From the NCBI GenBank assembly GCA_024679065.1, contig JAGIQG010000024.1:4340001-4404000 (forward strand): a DNA stretch of 64,000 nucleotides. Direction: 5' to 3'. The notes beneath the pieces are model-generated. The model had not been told where the DNA came from. It saw only the letters and a list, made by a program, of their open reading frames with translations, and ran no database searches. The stretch comes from Sphyrna mokarran (Eukaryota). Below are positions 4,250 to 45,729 of this stretch, in pieces. Position numbers and translations under genes: made by a program. Position 1 is the stretch's first letter, and every line of letters starts with the position of its first letter.

Positions 4250-5660
4250 ATCTATTCTAATCCCACAATATTCCAGATGCAGTCTCACCAAAACCTTGTA
4301 GAATCATAGCAAGACTTATTGCTCTCTAATTTACTGCATTCCTGTACACAAGCATATGCAATTCTCATTGAGCATCAAGTTTCTTATCTTTTAAAAGAAT
4401 CCTGATGATCAAAATCGACAACTTCACATTTGCCTATATTATACGCCATCTTCCATTCTGTTGTCCGTTCACCTCTTGTATTTATGGGCCATATTTTTCG
4501 GCTCTCTGCGGTATGTTTTCTGGCAGGAGAGGCAGCTTGCCATTGGCTGTCGGTGGGATCTTTCAGTTTTGCGATGTTTACGACATTTTGTATGACTCAC
4601 CTGTCCCACCACCGGTGAACCTGCCATAGTATGTTGCCTTCTGCAGGACTAAAAGGTCCTGCTGGTGGGAAGGGCCAGAGAATCTCACTCTGTATCTCTT
4701 TGCAGCCTCTCTGTGTCCTCCCATCAAATTACCTTTCCATTTAGCTTTGTACCATCAGCAAAATTAGATACGTTACTCAATGACTCTCCGTCTAAGTCAT
4801 TGTAAATAGCTGAGGCCCCAATACATAATATTGCAACATTCCACTGTTCACTGCCAACCAACTTGAAAAAGTTCTGCTAATGCCAAATCTGCTTTTTATC
4901 TGTTAACCAATCCTCTAACCATGTTAATATATTGCCTTAACTTTTGCCTCAATCTTTTGTGCAGCACTTTATTGAATGACTTTTGGAAATCCAAGTATTC
5001 TACATCCACTGATTTACATCAGTTTACATTATCAAAAACACTAATATATTTATCAAAAGGGACATTCCTTTCTTGTGGCCGTTTGTGGTAATGTTGGGTG
5101 TGTTTTTGTTTCTTGCTGCTTAAGGCACATCAAAGATAGTTAGAAATCATCTCTTCTCTAAAGCAAGTAATCCCCGGCTACCAGACTAATTGTGGCTCTT
5201 GCAGGACATTTTGCTATCCCTTTAATACATCATGTTGACTTGTCCTAATAATACAATGATTTTCTCATTGCATTGTTACGATTTCCTTATTAAGAGCTTC
5301 CAGTCTTTCCGAAAAACTAATGTTAGATAACTAACTCTGCTTTTATACCCCCCTCATTTCTTCAAAAGTGGTGTAACATTTGTCAACTTCTAATCTAATG
5401 GGACCATTCCTGAACCTAAGGAATTTTGGAAAACCATAACGAGGGCACATATTTGGGTGGAGTTACCGCACTGTTTGGATGAAATCATAAGATCCTGCCC
5501 AAGGCCAATGGAGATTTCCATTGTGGGACCTTCACCTGCGCTGATTCTGGGGTGGGGAACGGGTAGAGTTTGGGCCACTATCTCTGCAGTTATCTCTTTT
5601 AGAATCCTAAGTTATAAGCCATCAGGTCTTGTGGGTTTGTTGGATTTTAATCCTTAATGT
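4250..5660 (-). mobile_element. Old CR1-type LINE fragment interrupted by later insertions
   Basis: Degenerate antisense RT sequence (e.g. TTTTGGAAATCCAAGTA; GCCATCAGGTCTTGTGGGTTTGT). Confidence 0.6.
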
Positions 5661-9573: not shown

Positions 9574-12571
9574 AATGCCCTATTGCTCAAACTAGTTTCA
9601 ATGCCCCATTGCTCAGACTGGGTTCAACGCCCTATTGCTCACACTGGGTTCAATGCCCCATTGCTCAGACTGGGTTCAACGCCCCATTGCTCAGACTGGG
9701 TTCAATGCCCTATTGCTCAGACTGGGTTCAACGCCCTATTGCTCAGACTGGGTTCAACGCCCTATTGCTCACACTGGGTTCAATGCCCCATTGCTCAGAC
9801 TGGGTTCAACGCCCTATTGCTCACACTGGGTTCAACGCCCCATTGCTCAGACTGGGTTCAACGCCCCATTGCTCAGACTGGGTTCAATGCCCCATTGCTC
9901 ACACTGGGTTCAATGCCCTATTGCTCACACTGGGTTCAATATACCATTGCTCAGACTGGGTTCAACGCCCTATTGCTCAGACTGGGTTCAATGCCCCATT
10001 GCTCAGACTGGGTTCAATGCCCCATTGCTCTCACTGGGTTCAATGCCCTATTGCTCACACTGGGTTCAATATACCATTGCTCATACTGGGTTCAATGCCC
10101 CATTGCTCAGACTCGGTTCAACGCCCCATTGCTCAGACTGGGTTCAACGCCCCATTGCTCAGACTGGGTTCAACGCCCCATTGCTCAGACTGGGTTCAAT
10201 GCCCTATTGCTCACACTGGGTTCAATGCCCTATTGCTCAGACTGGGTTCAATGCCCTATTGCTCACACTGGGTTCAATGCCCCATTGCTCAGACTGGGTT
10301 CAATGCCCTATTGCTCAGACTGGGTTCAATGCCCTATTGCTCAGACTGGGTTCAATGCCCCATTGCTCAGACTGGGTTCAATGCCCTATTGCTCACACTG
10401 GGTCAATGCCCCATTGCTCACACTGGGTCAATGCCCTATTGCTCACACTGGGTTCAATGCCCCATTGCTCTCATGGGTTCAATGCCCATTGCTCACAGGG
10501 TTCATGCCTATTGCTCACACTGGGTTCAATGCCCTATTGCTCACACTGGGTTCAATGCCCATGCTCAGACTGGGTCAATGCCCATTGCTCAGACTGGGTT
10601 CAATGCCCCATTGCTCACACTCGGTTCAATGCCCCATTGCTCACATGGTTCATGCCCCATTGCTCAGACGGGTTCAATGCCCCATTGCTCAGACTGGGTC
10701 AATGCCCCATTGCTCACACTGGGTTCAATGCCCCATTGCTCACACTGGTTCAATCCCTGCTCAGCGGCAATGCCCCATGCTCACACTGGTTCAATGCCCC
10801 ATGCTCAGACTGGGTTAACGCCCCATTGCTCAGACTGGGTTCAATGCCCTATTGCTCACATGGGTTCAATGTGACTGGGTTCAATGCCTATTGTCAGACT
10901 GGGTTCAATGCCCTAGCTCACACTGGGTCAATGCCCCATTGCCACACTGGGTTCAATGCCCTATTGCTCACACTGGGTTGTCAATGCCCCATTGCTCAAC
11001 TGGGTTCAATGCCCCATTGCTCACGGTTCAATGCCATGCTCAGACTGGGTTCAATGCCCCTTGCTCCACTGGGTTCAATGCCCCATTGCTCAGAGGTTCA
11101 ATGCCCCATTGCTCACACTGGGTTCAATGCCCCATTGCTCACACTGGGTTCAATGCCCCATTGCTCACACTGGGTTCAATGCCCCATTGCTCACACTGGG
11201 TTCAATGCCCCATTGCTCACACTGGGTTCAATGCCCCATTGCTCACACTGGGTTCAATGCCCCATTGCTCACACTGGGTTCAATGCCCCATTGCTCACAC
11301 TGGGTTCAATGCCCCATTGCTCACACTGGGTTCAATGCCCCATTGCTCACACTGGGTTCAATGCCCCATTGCTCACACTGGGTTCAATGCCCCATTGCTC
11401 ACACTGGGTTCAATGCCCCATTGCTCACACTGGGTTCAATGCCCCATTGCTCAGACTGGGTTCAATGCCCCATTGCTCACACTGGGTTCAATGCCCCATT
11501 GCTCACACTGGGTTCAATGCCCCATTGCTCACACTGGGTTCAATGCCCCATTGCTCACACTGGGTTCAATGCCCCATTGCTCACACTGGGTTCAATGCCC
11601 CATTGCTCACACTGGGTTCAATGCCCCATTGCTCACACTGGGTTCAATGCCCATTGCTCAACGGTTAGCCCCATTGTCACACTGGTCAATGCCCATTCTC
11701 ACATTTCCCCATTGCTCACTGGGTTCAATCCCATTGCTCACGGGTTCATGCCCCATTGCTCAACTGGGTTCAATGCCCATTGCTCACTGGTCAATGCCCC
11801 ATTGCTCACATGGGTTCAATGCCCCATTCTCACACTGGTCAATGCCCCATTATCACACTGGGTTCAATGCCCATTCTCACACTGGCATGCCATTCACATG
11901 GGTTCAATGCCCCATTGTCCACTGGGTTCAATGCCCCATTTCAACTGGGTCAATGCCCCATTGCTCCATGGGTTCAATGCCCATTGCTCACACTGGGTTC
12001 AATGCCCCATTGCTCACACTGGGTTCAATGCCCCATTGCTCACACTGGGTTCAATGCCCCATGCTCACACTGGGTTCAAGCCCCATTCTCATGGGTCAAT
12101 GCCCCATTACTCACACTGGGTTCAATGCCCCATTGCTCACACTGGGTTCAATGCCCCATTGCTCACACTGGGTTCAATGCCCCATTGCTCACTGGGTTCA
12201 ATGCCCATTCTCACTGGGTTCATGCCCATTGCTCACACTGGGTTCAATGCCCCATTGCTCACACTGGGTTCAAGCCCCATTGCTCACACTGGGTCAATGC
12301 CCATTGTCACTGGGTTCAATGCCCCATTGCTCACACTGGGTTCAATGCCCCATTGCTCACACTGGGTTCAATGCCCCATTGCTCACACTGGGTTCAATGC
12401 CCCATTACTCACACTGGGTTCAATGCCCCATTACTCACACTGGGTTCAATGCCCCATTGCTCACACTCGGTTCAATGCCCCATTACTCACACTGGGTTCA
12501 ATGCCCCATTGCTCACACTCGGTTCAATGCCCCATTACTCACACTCGGTTCAATGCCCTATTGCTCAAACT
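9574..12571. repeat. 26-bp tandem repeat (minisatellite), ~115 copies
   Basis: Unit TTCAATGCCCCATTGCTCACACTGGG with period 26 (e.g. 11101 to 11127). Variants are CAC/CAG, AAT/AAC and CCCC/CCCT. Confidence 0.98.
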
Positions 12572-38678: not shown

Positions 38679-38796
38679 AGAGGATGGAAAAGACAGCCTT
38701 AAGTTTTACACTGACCCTTCCTATTTCTTTGATCTTTGGAAAGAAAAAATGCTGCAAGACACCAAGGAGATAATGAAAGAGAAAAGGAAACACAGG
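38679..38796 (+). CDS. WASF2: WASF2 coding exon 4 (end of WHD, start of basic region)
   Basis: ttgcag acceptor; [39 protein letters not shown]; donor gtattg; 118 nt, phase 2/0. Confidence 0.97.
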
Positions 38797-39512
38797 GTAT
38801 TGCTTTATATTTTAGTCTTGAATAATGGTGAATGGATGGTTCAAAGCTGAAATTGAATGGAATGTGATTCTCTTCATTTATGAATTGCATTTCCTTTTTG
38901 TTGTTTCACCCTAGCAAGTGGGTACTGGCAATTAAAAATAACAGGAACTTGGCATTCTAAACTGTGCTGAATTTATACCAGCAAGACAAGTGTAAATTGT
39001 ATGCAAGAGAAAAAGTTCCAGGCAGCCGCAATGACTTCAAATTTTGAAACCTACAGCAATGCCAACGTGCTTTCTATCTTCTGTGTATTTTATATTCAAT
39101 CACCTGATTATACAGAATCGGTCATTGGATAGTGACTTGTACAGTAGCTGTAGGCAAAGCCGCCTTCAATTTTGGCCGGCAAGTACAATCAGAATAGTGA
39201 TTTACGCACCATTATCTGAAATGCAGAGTGCAAAATTATGATGCGAGTCTCTAAATGACACTTAATTGGCTATGGAGAAATGATCTGTTGATGCTGTCTC
39301 CAGTGTTAATACATTATTGATTGAAAAGAGTTATGTGGATTAATTTAATTGTGAAGTCAAAGATCTGTAAGAAAGATGTAAAAAAAAAATGGAGAAGTGA
39401 ATTGGAGCCAGACTTGGTTAGTGGGGAAGAAAAACTGAAGGACAAAGAAAAACTAATTAGTACTTCATTCATACTGCATCCTCTACCTACATTTCAAGTT
39501 CTCTTCTATTCT

Positions 39513-40854
39513 TGAGAGACACTCAGGAGAGTGTCTTATCCGAGTTTTATTGTTGCTCGTCGACACGTGTCATGCACTTCTGATCGGAATCAGAGTGACT
39601 TCCACCAGATGTTATCACAGCCCTTAGGCATTGGCGGAAACGGGAAATTGATCTTGGAATGATGCAGCCACAACCACAATTGCAAGCAAGCGGATTGAGT
39701 CACACCTCTGGGAGCGTCTGTCGTGCATGTTAGTTTTTGCTCGTTTGCTCCGAGCTGTTTACCCATAAATCATCATTTGATTACAAAGTGATTTTTATTA
39801 AGTAACAGACACAACCATACAACAAACAACCCAACAATACCGAAAAAGCGACCGTGGCATGAAACGCGCTTGCACAACCCGGGAGCTGCACCCATTGCTG
39901 TCAACCACACCCAACCCGTCGGGGCATGGAAGACATGTCTATTTCTGTTACTTTTCGTCATCATCTGGCCAGCAATCATCAGGAACGAGCCGGGACAGCA
40001 CAGTCCATTCACTGCGTCACACCAGGTACAGGTCTGTTTGTCTTTCCTCAAAGTCGTGTGGGCTGGAGGTCTCGGTGGGGCTTCTGCTACCTTGATAGGC
40101 GTGATCGCATCCGTCACATGCAGATCACCAACTATCCCCGGGACTGGACGGGACCTGTCAAGACAAAATTTCTTTCACGATTACCAGGTTTAAAGGTACA
40201 GAAGCATGTTGGCAGTTCTTGGCCAGTCAGATTCCCTTCAGGACCATCACCTACCAGTTTGAAGGCCTGAAACCCTGCGGGACCTCTGCTAGGTTTGACT
40301 CACTGTGGTCTACAATGCAAAGAGTACCACAGTTATGCGAAACATACCAAAGACTATTCCAACAATACCACTCCTGGCTGGCAGTCCAGTGATAGTGATC
40401 ATTGTCTAGGCATGAGTGTCACCCGCTATTAGTTTCTCGGCCAGTCGTGGAATACCATCTCCTGTGCCCATGGAGATGATACCAGGTGGCTCCCGCTGAA
40501 GGGATTGACTCACTGTGCGCTAGAAACCAGAAGATTCACACAGCTACTTGAGATAGGCAATTTTTAAATGGAGCCTTCTTACGCAAGAATGGATAAAAGC
40601 CAATCTCAATCCACCTGTTTGTAATTGCAGTCTGATTGGGTACAGACGTGCAACTACATCCGCATTTTGCTTCTTGGACAGTTGCTTTAGCCATCGCCGC
40701 TTGGTCGAATAGCGGCGATGTTGCCTGGCAGGACCATTGAGGAGGTGCAACTCACTGTGTTATAGAAGCGATAAAATTCACACAGCTACTGTAACCATGA
40801 CTCTCCCACTCGAGAGTAAGAGAGTCATAGTTACTCCTGCCTGAAATTAAGCCA
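39513..40854 (-). mobile_element. Unclassified CpG-rich, structured non-coding insertion (antisense, inside a WASF2 intron)
   Basis: Abrupt rise in CpG relative to the flanks. Three tandem structured units at the minus-strand 5' end; minus-strand AATAAA at 39794-39799 and 39546-39551; terminal hairpin 39517-39536; TG...CA ends with imperfect flanking repeat TATTCT/TTTTCT. Confidence 0.55.
40680..40842 (-). ncRNA. HDV-like (delta-type) self-cleaving ribozyme fold, unit A
   Basis: Minus strand: P1 (A)GGCAGG/CCUGCC(A); P2 AGUUGC/GCAACU; P3 ACC/GGU with L3 UCCUCAAU; GG for P1.1; P4 CAUCGCCGCU/AGCGGCGAUG; J4/2 G-CUAAA. This closely parallels the HDV antigenomic core ACC-UCCUCGC-GGU-CCGACCU-GG...GAUGG-CUAAG. 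Confidence 0.72.
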
Positions 40855-40864
40855 TTTTCTATGT

Positions 40865-41860
40865 GTAAGCTCTTCAGTCCAGTCATGAATTGAAAATTTA
40901 ACAGGAAGAGGTGAATCCACAACTAGCCCGCTCCTCAATGATGGAGAAGTCAGAACTTCAGTGCGAAGTACAATTAAGGCTGAAGCAATTTAAGACATCT
41001 TCAACCTGAAGTAGAGTGGATGATCCATTTCAACGTACTCTTGAGGTGCCCAACATCATAGATGCCAGTTCTTCAGCTAATTTGGTTCACTCTACATGAT
41101 ATCAGGAAGCAGTTGAAGACGTAGATACTTCAAAGGCTATGGCCCTGACAACATTTTGGCAATGGTACTGAAAAATTATGCTCCAGAACTAGCTGACAAA
41201 GGTTCGTCTATACTCAACGTCAGCTCTATTCTTACCACAAATGCTGTCAGACCTGCTGGGATTTTCCAGCATTTTCTGTTTTTGCACCCTTAGCCATGCT
41301 GTTACAGTACAGCTACAGCACTGGCATCTACCTGGCAATGTGAAAAATTGCTCAGGGATGTCCTGTCACACAAAGATCTAACCCTGCCAATTACTGCCCC
41401 ATAAGCCTATTCCCAATATCAGCAGTGATGGGAGCTGTCATTAACAGTGCTATCACATGGCATTTATTCAGCAAATATCTGCTTACTGACACTCAGTTTG
41501 GGTTCTGCCAGGATCACTTGCTTCCTGATCTCATTATGACCTTGTTCTAAACAGTGACAAAAAAGTGAGGTTAGTGTGATTGCCCTTGATAGCAAATCAA
41601 CATTTAGAATATGGCGTCAAGGAGTCTTAGCAAAACTGGTCACTGGGAATCAGAAATAGGAGGAAAATCTTCATTGATTGGAGTGATAGTTCTCAAAGGA
41701 AGATGTTCGCAGTTGTTGGTCAATCGGTCCCAAGACATTGCTGCGGGAGTTTGTCAGGTTGGTGTCCTAGACTAAACTATCTTTAAGTGCTTCAGCAATG
41801 ATCTTTCCCTCCTTAAGGTCAGAAGTGTGGATGTTCACACATGATTACTTAATATTCTAC
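40865..41860 (+). mobile_element. CR1/L2-clade LINE ORF2 fragment with a nested short Penelope-type repeat (~41190-41285)
   Basis: KAM(G)PDN-like, ANYCPISL and QFGFCQ remnants of an RT domain. Confidence 0.7.
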
Positions 41861-41989
41861 TCAGTGTGACTTTTTTCCTCTTTTTATGAGGTTTGAGATA
41901 TCTCGTATCTCTCGAACATTTTCTGTATTGAGTCACTACTACCTCTCCACATAGTCCAGTTGCAGAATATTCAGTAGCCATGAATGGGT

Positions 41990-43600
41990 CATAGCATCAT
42001 AGGGGTTTACAGGCTCTTCGACTTGTTCATACTGTCCCTTTTTATTAATCACTAAGCTAGTCCCAATTGCCCATGTTTGGCCCATATCCCTCTACAGCCA
42101 CTTTGCTCATGTGACTATCTAAACACTTTTTAAAGGACAAAATTGTACTGCCTCTACTACTACCTCTGGCAGCTTGTTCCAGACAGTCACCACCCTCTGA
42201 AAAAATTGCCTCTTGACCCTTATGTTTCTTCCCTCTCACCTTAAACCTAAACCCTCTAGTTTTAGACTTCCTTATCTTTGGGAAAAGATTGACTATCTAA
42301 TTGATGTTATTTTAAACACCTCTATAAGATCACCTCTAAACTTCTTAAGCTCCAGAGGAAAATGTCCCTGCCTATCCAGCCTCTCCTCCTTGCTCAAACA
42401 ATCAAGTTTCAATATCATCCTAGTAAATCTTCTCTGCATTCTTTCTACTTCAATAACATCCTTTCTATAATAGGGTGACCAGAGCTGAACACAGTATTCT
42501 AAGTGTGGCCTTACAAACATCTTGTACAATTTCAACAAGACATCCCAAATCCTGTTTTCAGTGTTCTGACCAATGAAACAAGCATGCCAAGTGCCTCCTT
42601 CACCACCCTGTCCATTTGTGTCTCTACTTTCAAGGAGCAATGAACCTGTACCCTACACCACTTTGTTCTATAACTCTCCCCAGTGCCCTACCATTAACTG
42701 AGTAAGTCCTACCCTGGTTTGACCTACCAAAATGTATTACCTCGCATTTATCTAAATTAAACTCCACCTGCCATTCATCAGCCCACGAGCCCAATTGATT
42801 AAGATCCTGTTGCAATCCGAGATGACCTTCTTCACTGTCCATTATGCCAGCAATCTTGGTGTCATCTGCAAACTTACTAACCTTGCCTCCTATTCTCGTC
42901 CAAATCACTAATATAAATGTCCAGTAACAGTGGACGCAGCAGTGATCTCCGGGGCATTGAGCACTCTCAAAGTCATGCTGATTGTCCCTATACGTGAACT
43001 ACGGGGATTCAAGAAGGTAGCATACCATCATCGGACCTGAGCATTGTCCCATGAGCAACTATAAAATTTTGAACTTGTGTTAGTATTTCATCCATTAGCT
43101 CATTGTAGTTTATTGATTTAGGGTACCTGATTGTTCATAAATATCATCACTTGTTGAAATCATTTATTATCTAGGGTGCGTAGCAGGGTTACTTTGGCTT
43201 ACATTATCGACTTCCCTTAACCTTAAATGGCAGATTCCACGAAGCCAACATTTCAGATTCCACAGGCCTCTAATTTGAAAAAACACCCCCCTACAACTAC
43301 CTTCTGTCTTATGTCATCAAGCCAATTTTGTATCCTATTGGCTCCTTCACTTGGATCCATTGAGATTTAACTTTATGTAACAACCCACCATGTGGTGCCT
43401 TGTCAAAGATCATGTAAACAACTTTAACCGCATTGCCTGCATCTACCTTCTTGGTTACCCCCCTTCAGAAAACTCGGTGAAATTTGAGAGATATAATTTT
43501 CCACTTTCAAAGTCATGCTGACTGTCCCTAATCAGCCCTTCCCCCTCTCAATGCCTGTAAACATGTCTTTCAGAATATCTTCTAACAACTTACTGTCGAC
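41990..43600 (-). mobile_element. CR1 LINE RT fragment with 3' end, interrupted at 42962-43264
   Basis: ORFs read VRPHLEYCVQLWSPYYRKD and VSKFADDTKI...WQVEFNLDKCEVIHFG. Confidence 0.9.
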
Positions 43601-45598
43601 AACGCGTGAACTATTGGGATTCAAGAAGGTAGCAAACCATCATCTGGCCTGCTCCTTCTGTTCTTGTATTCTTGTTCTCCAGTGCAAGTCGGGATGGGCA
43701 ATTAAATGCTGGTCTCGCCAGCAATGCCCATGTCCCAAAAGCAACTTTTGAACTTGTGTTAGCATTTCACCTGTTGGCTCCTTGTAGTTTATTGATTTAG
43801 AGTACCTGATTGTTCATAAATATGATCACTTGTTGAAATCATTTGGCATTATCTAGGATGCATAGCAGAGTTTCTTTGGTGGCTTACATTATCAACTTTC
43901 CTGAAGCATAGGAACTTTAAATAGCAGATTTCATGAAGCCAACGTTTCAGATTCCACATCAACTAATTAATTATATGAAGGTGAATTTAATTACTGGCTT
44001 CCTTGATATTAAAATAAATACTGGGTGAAATATTTTACAATGACATCCAATAAAAATGTATAATAAATGTGGAATGTTGCTAGTCAGATTTTAAGTATCA
44101 ACAGAATTATTTAGGTCAGTGCTGAATAAAGCATGCTATAGAAAGTTACCAGAGAACCTTGAAATGCCACAGCTCATTGTCGCGGGAGCAATTACTTGGA
44201 AACAGACTAACCTGTGAAATTAATCACGAATACGTTGACATCTCAAACCAAAATGTGAACATTTTAGCAATTACTGAATAATTCAGTTTGTTTATCAAAC
44301 TGGTGTACGAAATTACAATTGTTGCTTTAAAGTTCTGTGTGTCTTGTCCCAAGAACATTACCAAATGAGAATATTAGAAAATGGATACGAACATTACAAA
44401 GGGATACTGAATGATATTGAGAGTGAGTGAATAGGCAAGATTGGCAAGTGGATTTCAATGTAGTCAAATGTGAGGTCATCCACTTTCGACTTCAAAAGGA
44501 TGGAACAAAGTCCTACTTAAATAGTGAAAAGAAAGAAATGATGGCGGGAAGGTGGGTTTAAATACATAACTAAAGATTAATGGAATTCTTTATATCTGGA
44601 GCACTAGAACAGAAGGAGGTAAAAGTTATGTTTCAGTTGTCCAATGCCTTGGTTAAACCATAGGGCATCATACCTTGAGAAGGGTGGGAAGACTTTGGAG
44701 TGAGTGCAACATCAGTTTATTGGAATGATGCTGTGCTTCAAGTGTTAAATTGTGAAGAGAGATTGCATAAAATAGATTGTATTCCCTGAAATTTGGATGG
44801 TTAGAAGGGTATTTGGTCAAAATAGATTAATGTACAGCTGAAAAGAAACTATTTTTGCTGGTTGGGAATAGAGGACGCGGGACACAAATCTGGCTCAATT
44901 TTTCTGATTTTCTCTTGAAAACACTTTACAAAGGTGATAAAAGTTTGGAATTCTTTTATAGATGGCAATTGGTACTATATCAATTGTAAATTTTAGATGT
45001 GAAATTGATTTTTATGGATACGGGCAAATATAGAATTGGATCATAAATCAGCCATGATCTTATTGAATGGCAGAGCAAGCTTGGAGGGTTGAAAGGACAT
45101 CTCCTACTTGAGTCTTCGTTTTCAGAGTTGATGTGGGATAATAGGCACTTTTGATAAAATAATTAAAAGCAAAATACTGCAGATGCTAGAAATCTGAAAC
45201 AAAATAGAAAATGCTGGATAGACTTAAGCCTGGCAGCATCTGTGGAGAGAGAAACCAAAATGTAGCAGCATCAGATGGACTCAACATCTTAACTGTTTTC
45301 TTCTTCACATGTGCTGCCAGATCGAATCAGCTTATTCAGTTTTTGTTTTACCATTATTTTGTGTAATAGTATACTGCTTGTATACCTTGGATGAGTTGCA
45401 GCGCAAAATAAGAATGTCGTGCTGTAAACACTGAGGTCAAGGAGAACCTGTGGAGAGAAAACGAATAGCATTTCGGATCAACAAACTTTCATCAGAACTG
45501 CAATGTGAATGCACTTTAATTTTTCTATTTTGTTTCAAATCACAAAACTCTTACAAAACACACTGAAATATATTGGTTGCTATTCTGTCTTTATCTAG

Positions 45599-45729
45599 AA
45601 AGAGAAAAGGGATGTTTCAAATAGAGGAAATCTCAATCCACGGAAAATAAGAACTCGGAAAGAAGAATGGGAGAGGTTGAAGATGGGCAAGGAATTTGTG
45701 GAAGCAAAGTCTGTGACAGAAGAATCCAC
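45599..45729 (+). CDS. WASF2: WASF2 coding exon 5 (basic region)
   Basis: tctag acceptor; [43 protein letters not shown]; donor gtaaat; 131 nt, phase 0/2. Confidence 0.95.

Follow-up and report, generated by a model that had tools for sequence, protein, structure and literature searches.

R2 is the textbook site-specific retrotransposon and forms the basis of RNA-templated gene insertion tools. A 2026 survey describes its target specificity as conserved (PMC13188248), and according to PMC3774820 R2 cleavage is found most often at position −28 of 28S rRNA. Non-coding elements moved in trans, the R2 SIDEs and R2/R1 hybrid SIDEs of Drosophila (Eickbush and Eickbush 2012, PMC3414825), combine an R2 ribozyme at the 5′ end with an R2-like 3′ end and an unrelated middle; that study reports them in 28S genes, with one ribozyme and a length of 529 bp for the R2 SIDE. 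The flatworm R2NS elements (the R2D and R2C families, called non-specific) belong to the R2 clade and have young copies outside rDNA. SIDER2 of Leishmania and Trypanosoma (PMC4035085, PMC5509151), a short retroposon found dispersed, carries hallmarks in tandem at its 5′ end: one, placed first, is an HDV-like ribozyme, while the second does not fold as such, yet is the most conserved part.

The element described here lies in a stretch of 64,000 nucleotides from Sphyrna mokarran (the window) and is very probably a decayed R2 SIDE, with a 28S head built into a predicted HDV-like ribozyme, that was likely inserted by R2 acting in trans at a site with a loose similarity to the 28S target. It has three marks of an R2 SIDE, namely an R2-type 5′ ribozyme, an R2-like 3′ end and no coding capacity. 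In contrast to the Drosophila SIDEs, it occurs in a vertebrate, measures 1.3–1.7 kb, is present in hundreds of copies outside rDNA, and carries a 28S-derived head and three ribozyme-like modules. Unlike the flatworm R2D and R2C families, the R2 of this genome, which has three zinc fingers, retains rDNA copies and a target preference that is degenerate, and non-autonomous elements likely depend on it. SIDER2, which differs by its L1Tc/ingi clade, two modules, promoter activity and domestication in 3′ UTRs, is a parallel of the present element and not a homologue. Each part has a precedent in R2 ribozymes, Drosophila SIDEs, flatworm R2NS or SIDER2; the vertebrate combination was not found in the literature searched, where neither dispersed vertebrate R2 SIDEs nor tripled R2 ribozymes are reported, and since Repbase, Dfam and supplements lie outside that literature, such elements may already be catalogued.

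The element, its copies and the host intron

The element and its surroundings comprise the following features.

38679..38796, + strand: host WASF exon upstream of the intron, from its translation
39504..39508, − strand: target DNA past the 3′ junction, TAGAA, a 3/5 match to 28S TAGCC
39509..39615, − strand: 3′-terminal part, homologous to that of autonomous R2 and closing with a hairpin and a short run of A; likely a recognition site for the R2 protein (putative)
39509..40841, − strand: the complete R2-derived element of 1,333 bp, non-autonomous and belonging to subfamily A, without R2-like coding sequence
40817..40841, − strand: head derived from 28S rRNA, ~25 nt, 28S −28 to about −4 of the R2 site
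45599..45710, + strand: WASF exon of the host that follows the intron, with an approximate end

The original prediction of a retroelement with an HDV-like fold at its 5′ end, antisense in a WASF intron (38797–45598), was confirmed. The exon neighbouring that at 38679..38796 matches WAVE1 in the PDB (E 1.6e-17); the PDB and Atlas place the host gene in the WASF family, within which it is putatively WASF2. By itself, this single intronic copy is ordinary and probably dead.

A DNA search of the animal's own genome returned 518 candidates, 40 of which were scored and found to be 83–92% identical, the window itself aside. Exact patterns of the inner modules 2 and 3 (described below) matched the genome 296 and 384 times, respectively, with reversed controls at 0; at least 384 copies of the element are present. 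The same 3′ end (within ~15 nt) is used by 27/29 other copies, the 5′ end is common to most, and 21 of the 30 copies retrieved by their 3′ end are full length. There are at least four subfamilies: A1 and A2, which are ~7% diverged and of the type seen in the window, together with B1 and B2 (1.5–1.7 kb, ~2%). The R2 protein found no tblastn match in seven other representative copies, the longest ATG frames in seven copies encode 70–166 residues, and no convincing target-site duplication was seen in 30 copies. A SINE (pol III) identity was rejected, the head being 28S rRNA and not tRNA, 7SL or 5S, with no such Rfam match over the element. In two DNA runs the contig depth of the element is far above that of its 3′ flank, a figure that yields no copy number. 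Elsewhere in the window, positions 9574–12571 hold a minisatellite with a 26-bp unit in ~118 copies.

The 28S-derived head and the ribozyme fold of module 1

The element's 5′ end folds as module 1, all parts of which are on the minus strand.

40680..40841, − strand: module 1, with the fold of an HDV-like ribozyme, a cut predicted 5′ of G40841 and the catalytic C equivalent at 40690
40841-40836 (GGCAGG) with 40732-40727 (CCUGCC), − strand: P1, a perfect 6-bp helix
40791..40834, − strand: J1/2 hairpin a, in which the 28S-derived strand pairs with element sequence
40755..40785, − strand: J1/2 hairpin b, which recurs in all three modules
40752-40747 with 40685-40680, − strand: P2
40746-40744 with 40735-40733, − strand: P3
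40743-40736, − strand: L3
40720-40711 with 40701-40692, − strand: P4

The segments originally listed are all found on this strand in the order claimed, which is the nested double-pseudoknot order P1-P2-P3-P1.1-P4-J4/2 with 94% of family cells paired, and the catalytic-C equivalent is indeed at 40690. The proposed register needed correction. The cut had been set 5′ of 40842, one nucleotide too far, next to a supposed A-A mismatch at position 1 of P1 and some 12 nt from the edge of the element; the first pair of P1 is G-C (G40841), the predicted cut falls 5′ of that G, and per-position 28S identity places the edge at 40841 itself. Since A40842 is flanking DNA, P1 contains no A-A mismatch. The suggested "P1 repair", A40726U, aims at the wrong helix, as A40726 is the first position of the P1.1 GG, where 19/24 aligned sequences have G.

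A near-canonical HDV descriptor matched once (40841-40680) in the 128 kb that the window's two strands make up, and never in 111 dinucleotide-shuffled 32-kb pieces (3.55 Mb), so that the expected descriptor match was obtained in this version, and not in the strict one requiring the L3 G and the P1.1 GG, which had no match in the window. A relaxed architecture descriptor was set aside as uninformative, with five window matches, 100 in the 3.55 Mb of shuffles and neither module 2 nor module 3 of the window among its matches. The stretch of module 1 folds far more stably than shuffles (z −6.05). The Rfam HDV-like models, which had also been expected to match, gave no hit in the window at the gathering score; module 1 scored 25.5 and 26.3 bits, both below the cut-off of 50, the former being the alignment of HDV_ribozyme to its core (E 0.53). 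The autonomous R2 ribozyme gave no Rfam hit whatever, which indicates that the library does not cover this ribozyme type. The HDV ribozyme of RF00094 can be aligned with module 1 in the L3/P3/P1.1/J4-2 core sequence, whereas the long J1/2, the retroelement rather than viral context and the score below cut-off set module 1 apart.

A close counterpart is the R2 ribozyme, to which module 1 aligns with scores of 44–66 in 4/4 copies (0/500 shuffles). As described in PMC3774820, R2 HDV-like ribozymes likewise take the 5′ strand of P1 from 28S starting at −28, and P2, P3, L3, P1.1, P4, the catalytic C and head duplications at junctions are also common to both; P1 has ~7 bp there and 6 bp here, where the fold is a predicted one, and the window copy has lost the L3 G and one P1.1 G.

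The first six nucleotides of the head constitute the 5′ strand of P1. The head sequence as a whole also closes the 28S contig of this genome (L048, recognized by Rfam LSU) and matches the 28S text in Table 3 of PMC4370867, with the start 28 nt upstream of the R2 site. Identity to 28S amounts to 63–100% at +1 to +24 versus 12–37% at −14 to −1 in 43 of 54 copies collected independently of the head, positions +6 to +22 having served as anchor and +1 to +5 not, and over the first 24 nt of the head the commonest base is in every case that of 28S. Searches with inner or 3′ patterns yielded 66 distinct copies; the head is reached in 50 of these, and the start falls precisely on G1 in 25 and no more than 9 nt from it in 41. 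Exact head matches number 63, and the 28 distinct places read correspond to 27 element copies and one rDNA locus. A further subfamily (L240, L251, L115) has a head cut to ~8 nt of 28S and is without hairpin a.

In agreement with the expectation that other copies would preserve P1, P2 and P3, module 1 is paired in 94.2% of cells across 24 aligned sequences, against 29–55% in slid controls. Cells with a double-sided change number 17 versus 7.3 in shuffles (0/500); counted as pairs, such changes are no more frequent than in shuffles (5 versus 5.0, 312/500). Between subfamilies, U-A becomes C-G in P2 and A-U becomes G-C in P4, and an A-U pair in P1 can be accounted for by two CpG decays. The catalytic C of J4/2 followed by N-A-A is present in 24/24 at the alignment columns, one row (L107) being misaligned at the catalytic-C column. 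In 81 parsed copies, a set enriched for exact heads, the catalytic C is kept in 81, the L3 G in 69 and the P1.1 GG in 66, while all seven scored core features occur together in 26, including only 1/32 type-A copies. Self-cleavage by module 1 is predicted, with indirect agreement from the 25/66 copies whose start coincides with the predicted site.

That the window copy is weakened was judged probable, by another route than the one first proposed: it has A at 40738 in L3, where 18/24 aligned sequences have G, in addition to A40726. Both positions are in a CpG context, and just one P1.1 pair is retained. Compared with the column majority of 31 relatives, the copy differs at 80/1,293 positions, 32 of them CpG transitions. 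In Nasonia R2 a G-to-A change in L3 abolished cleavage (PMC3774820), and for this reason the ribozyme of the window copy probably cuts poorly or not at all; the copy is probably a decayed dead end, impaired by CpG decay.

Modules 2 and 3

Two further units follow module 1 within the element.

40443..40616, − strand: module 2, a diverged duplicate with HDV-like helix order, no C-N-A-A in J4/2
40510-40482, − strand: module 2 core, the most conserved stretch across subfamilies
40225..40427, − strand: module 3, a second duplicate, with A-A at the first position of P1, L3 without UCC and no catalytic C

The three modules are mutually homologous (0/500 shuffles in 3/3 correctly parsed copies, module 3 being counted on three of four copies with L029 left out), and modules 2 and 3 repeat the order hairpin b, P2, P3, L3, P1′, GG, P4, P2′ of module 1. 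The P1 and P3 sequences differ between modules yet pair in each, and 95.7% of cells are paired in module 2 and 92.7% in module 3. No such extra units were seen after the ribozyme of autonomous R2, which has a single one. Modules 2 and 3 do not qualify as HDV-like ribozymes: the catalytic signature and the L3 sequence are wanting, and of 66 copies none begins 10 nt or less from either predicted cut site. From their sequence, both are likely non-cutting.

Their conservation is nevertheless pronounced. Across four subfamilies, 1/39 columns vary in the module 2 core and 81/251 in the body (Fisher p 3e-5), compared with 6/41 in the module 3 core (p 0.026) and 7/41 in that of module 1 (p 0.065); copies were anchored on module 2, but the A copies from the search of the animal's own genome and the B copies from the exact head matches had been collected without it. 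Covariation within the family is not above shuffles in either module, because the columns hardly vary.

A putative use of modules 2 and 3, which we favour tentatively and hold to be possible, would be that of stable folds shielding the uncapped RNA from 5′ decay. It is preferred because R2 templates work better when an HDV fold at their 5′ end is stable (PMC11331408, PMC12222951), the stability of this fold raising insertion efficiency (PMC11331408). The duplicated folds share their neighbourhood with another structure, a strong hairpin at 40679-40618 that joins modules 1 and 2 and at which several truncated copies end. In 4/14 truncated copies, a small number from a set anchored on modules 2/3 and for that reason given no weight, the end lies 17–47 nt before module 2.

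It is doubtful that module 2 owes its preservation instead to binding, whether of the R2 protein or of a host factor to the RNA, or to promoter or enhancer activity at the DNA level. Such a role accords with the near-invariance of its sequence, as opposed to covarying pairs, and with the presence in module 2 and in module 3 of TGAGTCA, presumably an AP-1 consensus; this motif, however, is not enriched in the window (9 versus 13.4 in shuffles) and doubles as a P2 strand whose partner is kept. The trypanosomatid Pr77 hallmark acts as a promoter as well as a ribozyme, and in SIDER2 the second signature is both the most conserved part and a cleavage site, where cleavage is thought to require protein factors (PMC4035085, PMC5509151), whereas DNA cleavage by R2Tg is independent of its 5′ UTR (PMC12222951). 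Neutral duplication relics without present function are unlikely: covariation no higher than in shuffles and the full-length copies still produced by autonomous R2 with a single ribozyme would suit them, but not the near-invariant module 2 core or the 6/41 variable columns of the module 3 core. Active non-canonical ribozymes are highly improbable in either module, for although the helix order is HDV-like, 93–96% of cells are paired and conservation is strong, J4/2 is without C-N-A-A, module 3 opens P1 with A-A and has no UCC in L3, and no copy in 66 starts within 10 nt of either predicted site.

A likely partner R2, target sites and proposed mobilization

A full-length R2 of ~5 kb lies between two 28S halves (L107). 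Together with L127 it shows what defines R2, a single ORF with the expected domains and a 28S target; the ORF of L107 contains three zinc fingers, a Myb-like stretch, an RT and a C-terminal nuclease region, the zinc fingers and Myb being read by eye from the translation and Pfam confirming the RT with weak C2H2 hits. The top PDB hits of the protein are R2 proteins (E 1e-161) and its top database hits come from sharks. Its RT half was scored at 63 places on 26 scaffolds, and ten R2 copies have stop-free frames of 1,289–1,358 residues. As 19/20 R2 3′ junctions have no extended 28S, and the 5′ regions, 20 in number and mostly selected for their long frames, include 15 that extend to a 28S-type head and none with upstream 28S, R2 itself is dispersed. 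It is also present in true rDNA, contig C1614 (L112) beginning with the last 15 nt of R2, after which comes the 28S 3′ half. The dispersed copies (L122-L161) form two age groups, with ~97–99% and 82–90% DNA identity to the ends of L107.

Subfamily A, that of the window, is related to the R2 3′ end over ~110 nt (local alignment score 62 versus a shuffled maximum of 38 in 500). Two B/C copies have 550–645 nt in common with the R2 3′ region at 73–77%, and two others two shorter blocks. Because subfamily A shares only those last ~110 nt with the R2 found, its partner may differ, and could, judging from the alignments, be another or an extinct R2; 30 copies retrieved by their 3′ end did not reveal a partner of subfamily A's own. 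A fragment common to subfamily B and the R2 3′ UTR (L044 ~1000–1105 and L107 ~4810–4900) also matches many unrelated loci and seems to be a captured piece of another common repeat.

Element and R2 copies have the same target signature. In 50/70 cases the 3′ flank matches 28S TAGCC at 4–5/5 letters, versus 1.6% of control positions. Empty-site relatives in other repeats were obtained for 10/60 copies, nine of them credible (the doubtful pair of L170, with a gap of −12, was left out of the count), and establish that the TAGCC-like letters belong to the target DNA. At the nine sites ~0–9 bp of target were lost without duplication, and two of them lack AAGG, the same four letters as at the 28S site. 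CR1-like repeats harbour many of the insertions. One CR1-like hot spot is occupied in L015, L017, L061, L188, L199, L218 and L220 and a second in L009, L018, L163, L165 and L187; these were hit independently by different subfamilies and by R2 (L131, L140).

Nearly all of the examined copies are outside rDNA; one (L108) lies between both 28S flanks. No long assembled rDNA unit with a SIDE inside was seen, and the R2 site is where each of the two true 28S contigs breaks off. Exact 28S-downstream sites number 15, and in 11 the sequence in front is the end of an R2 or a SIDE (three being identical noisy copies). Scattered copies carry 38–357 nt of downstream 28S, three of them (L109, L115, L119; 79–357 nt) without upstream 28S, as expected of 5′-cut read-through transcripts re-inserted elsewhere; such tails suggest source elements inside rDNA. 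The three identical copies (L110, L111, L118) are error-rich, of B type and with a 28S tail on C741 and C949, and possibly represent an assembly artefact. In L114 and L121 the 3′ ends of more distant R2-like lineages (70–82% to L107) are followed by 28S tails.

These observations suggest a path of mobilization in which source SIDE copies, likely residing in 28S rDNA, would be co-transcribed with it. Module 1 would cut the transcript at 28S −28, right before G40841, where 5′ ends are observed, and the R2-like 3′ end of the SIDE RNA would be where the R2 protein binds. Reverse transcription would start at a nick before TAGCC-like DNA, a preference seen in the copies and attributed here to the R2 enzyme. 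With R2 specificity relaxed, copies would land genome-wide, usually with 0–9 bp of target lost and no duplication. Modules 2 and 3, by their homology, would stem from duplication of the ribozyme.

An improbable alternative holds that the scattered copies are themselves the sources, as in L1Tc-type elements, and that they have become independent of rDNA. As the 5′ strand of P1 is contained in every full-length copy, host transcription and self-cleavage could release RNA anywhere; 26/81 parsed copies (the set enriched for exact heads) keep all seven core features, 21/30 found by 3′ end are full length and the young subfamilies are merely ~2% diverged. However, the head consensus equals 28S at 24 positions and R2 heads agree, as expected if rDNA re-supplies the head, and 28S read-through tails and head duplications occur. 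Movement by a CR1/L2-type LINE, or a chance resemblance to R2, can practically be discounted, since the insertions within CR1-like repeats and the subfamily A 3′ body without match to the found R2 are outweighed by the R2-like terminal 110 nt, the 28S head, the lack of target duplication and, above all, the TAGCC-type targets common to R2 copies, which largely refute it.

Returning to rDNA-resident sources mobilized by R2, a wider reading, to which we give somewhat less than even credence, is that of a shark-lineage R2 that breeds in rDNA and is massively off-target, with long-lived passengers bearing one cutting ribozyme and two catalytically dead folds that selection maintains as armour for the RNA or docks for protein. 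If true, hundreds of R2 off-target sites would be naturally recorded in the copies, and the passengers would be naturally optimized donor RNAs to use in R2-based gene insertion. With dozens of young intact non-rDNA copies and hundreds of passengers, a vertebrate R2 offers a natural map of relaxed specificity, and the SIDE passengers natural trans-acting templates. Conserved, apparently non-cutting HDV folds would make fold and catalysis separable, a question raised by engineering work (PMC11331408). R2-like proteins of other sharks (P0002, P0004, P0015) are encoded on contigs of 255–808 kb, which hints at R2 dispersal beyond the S. mokarran genome.
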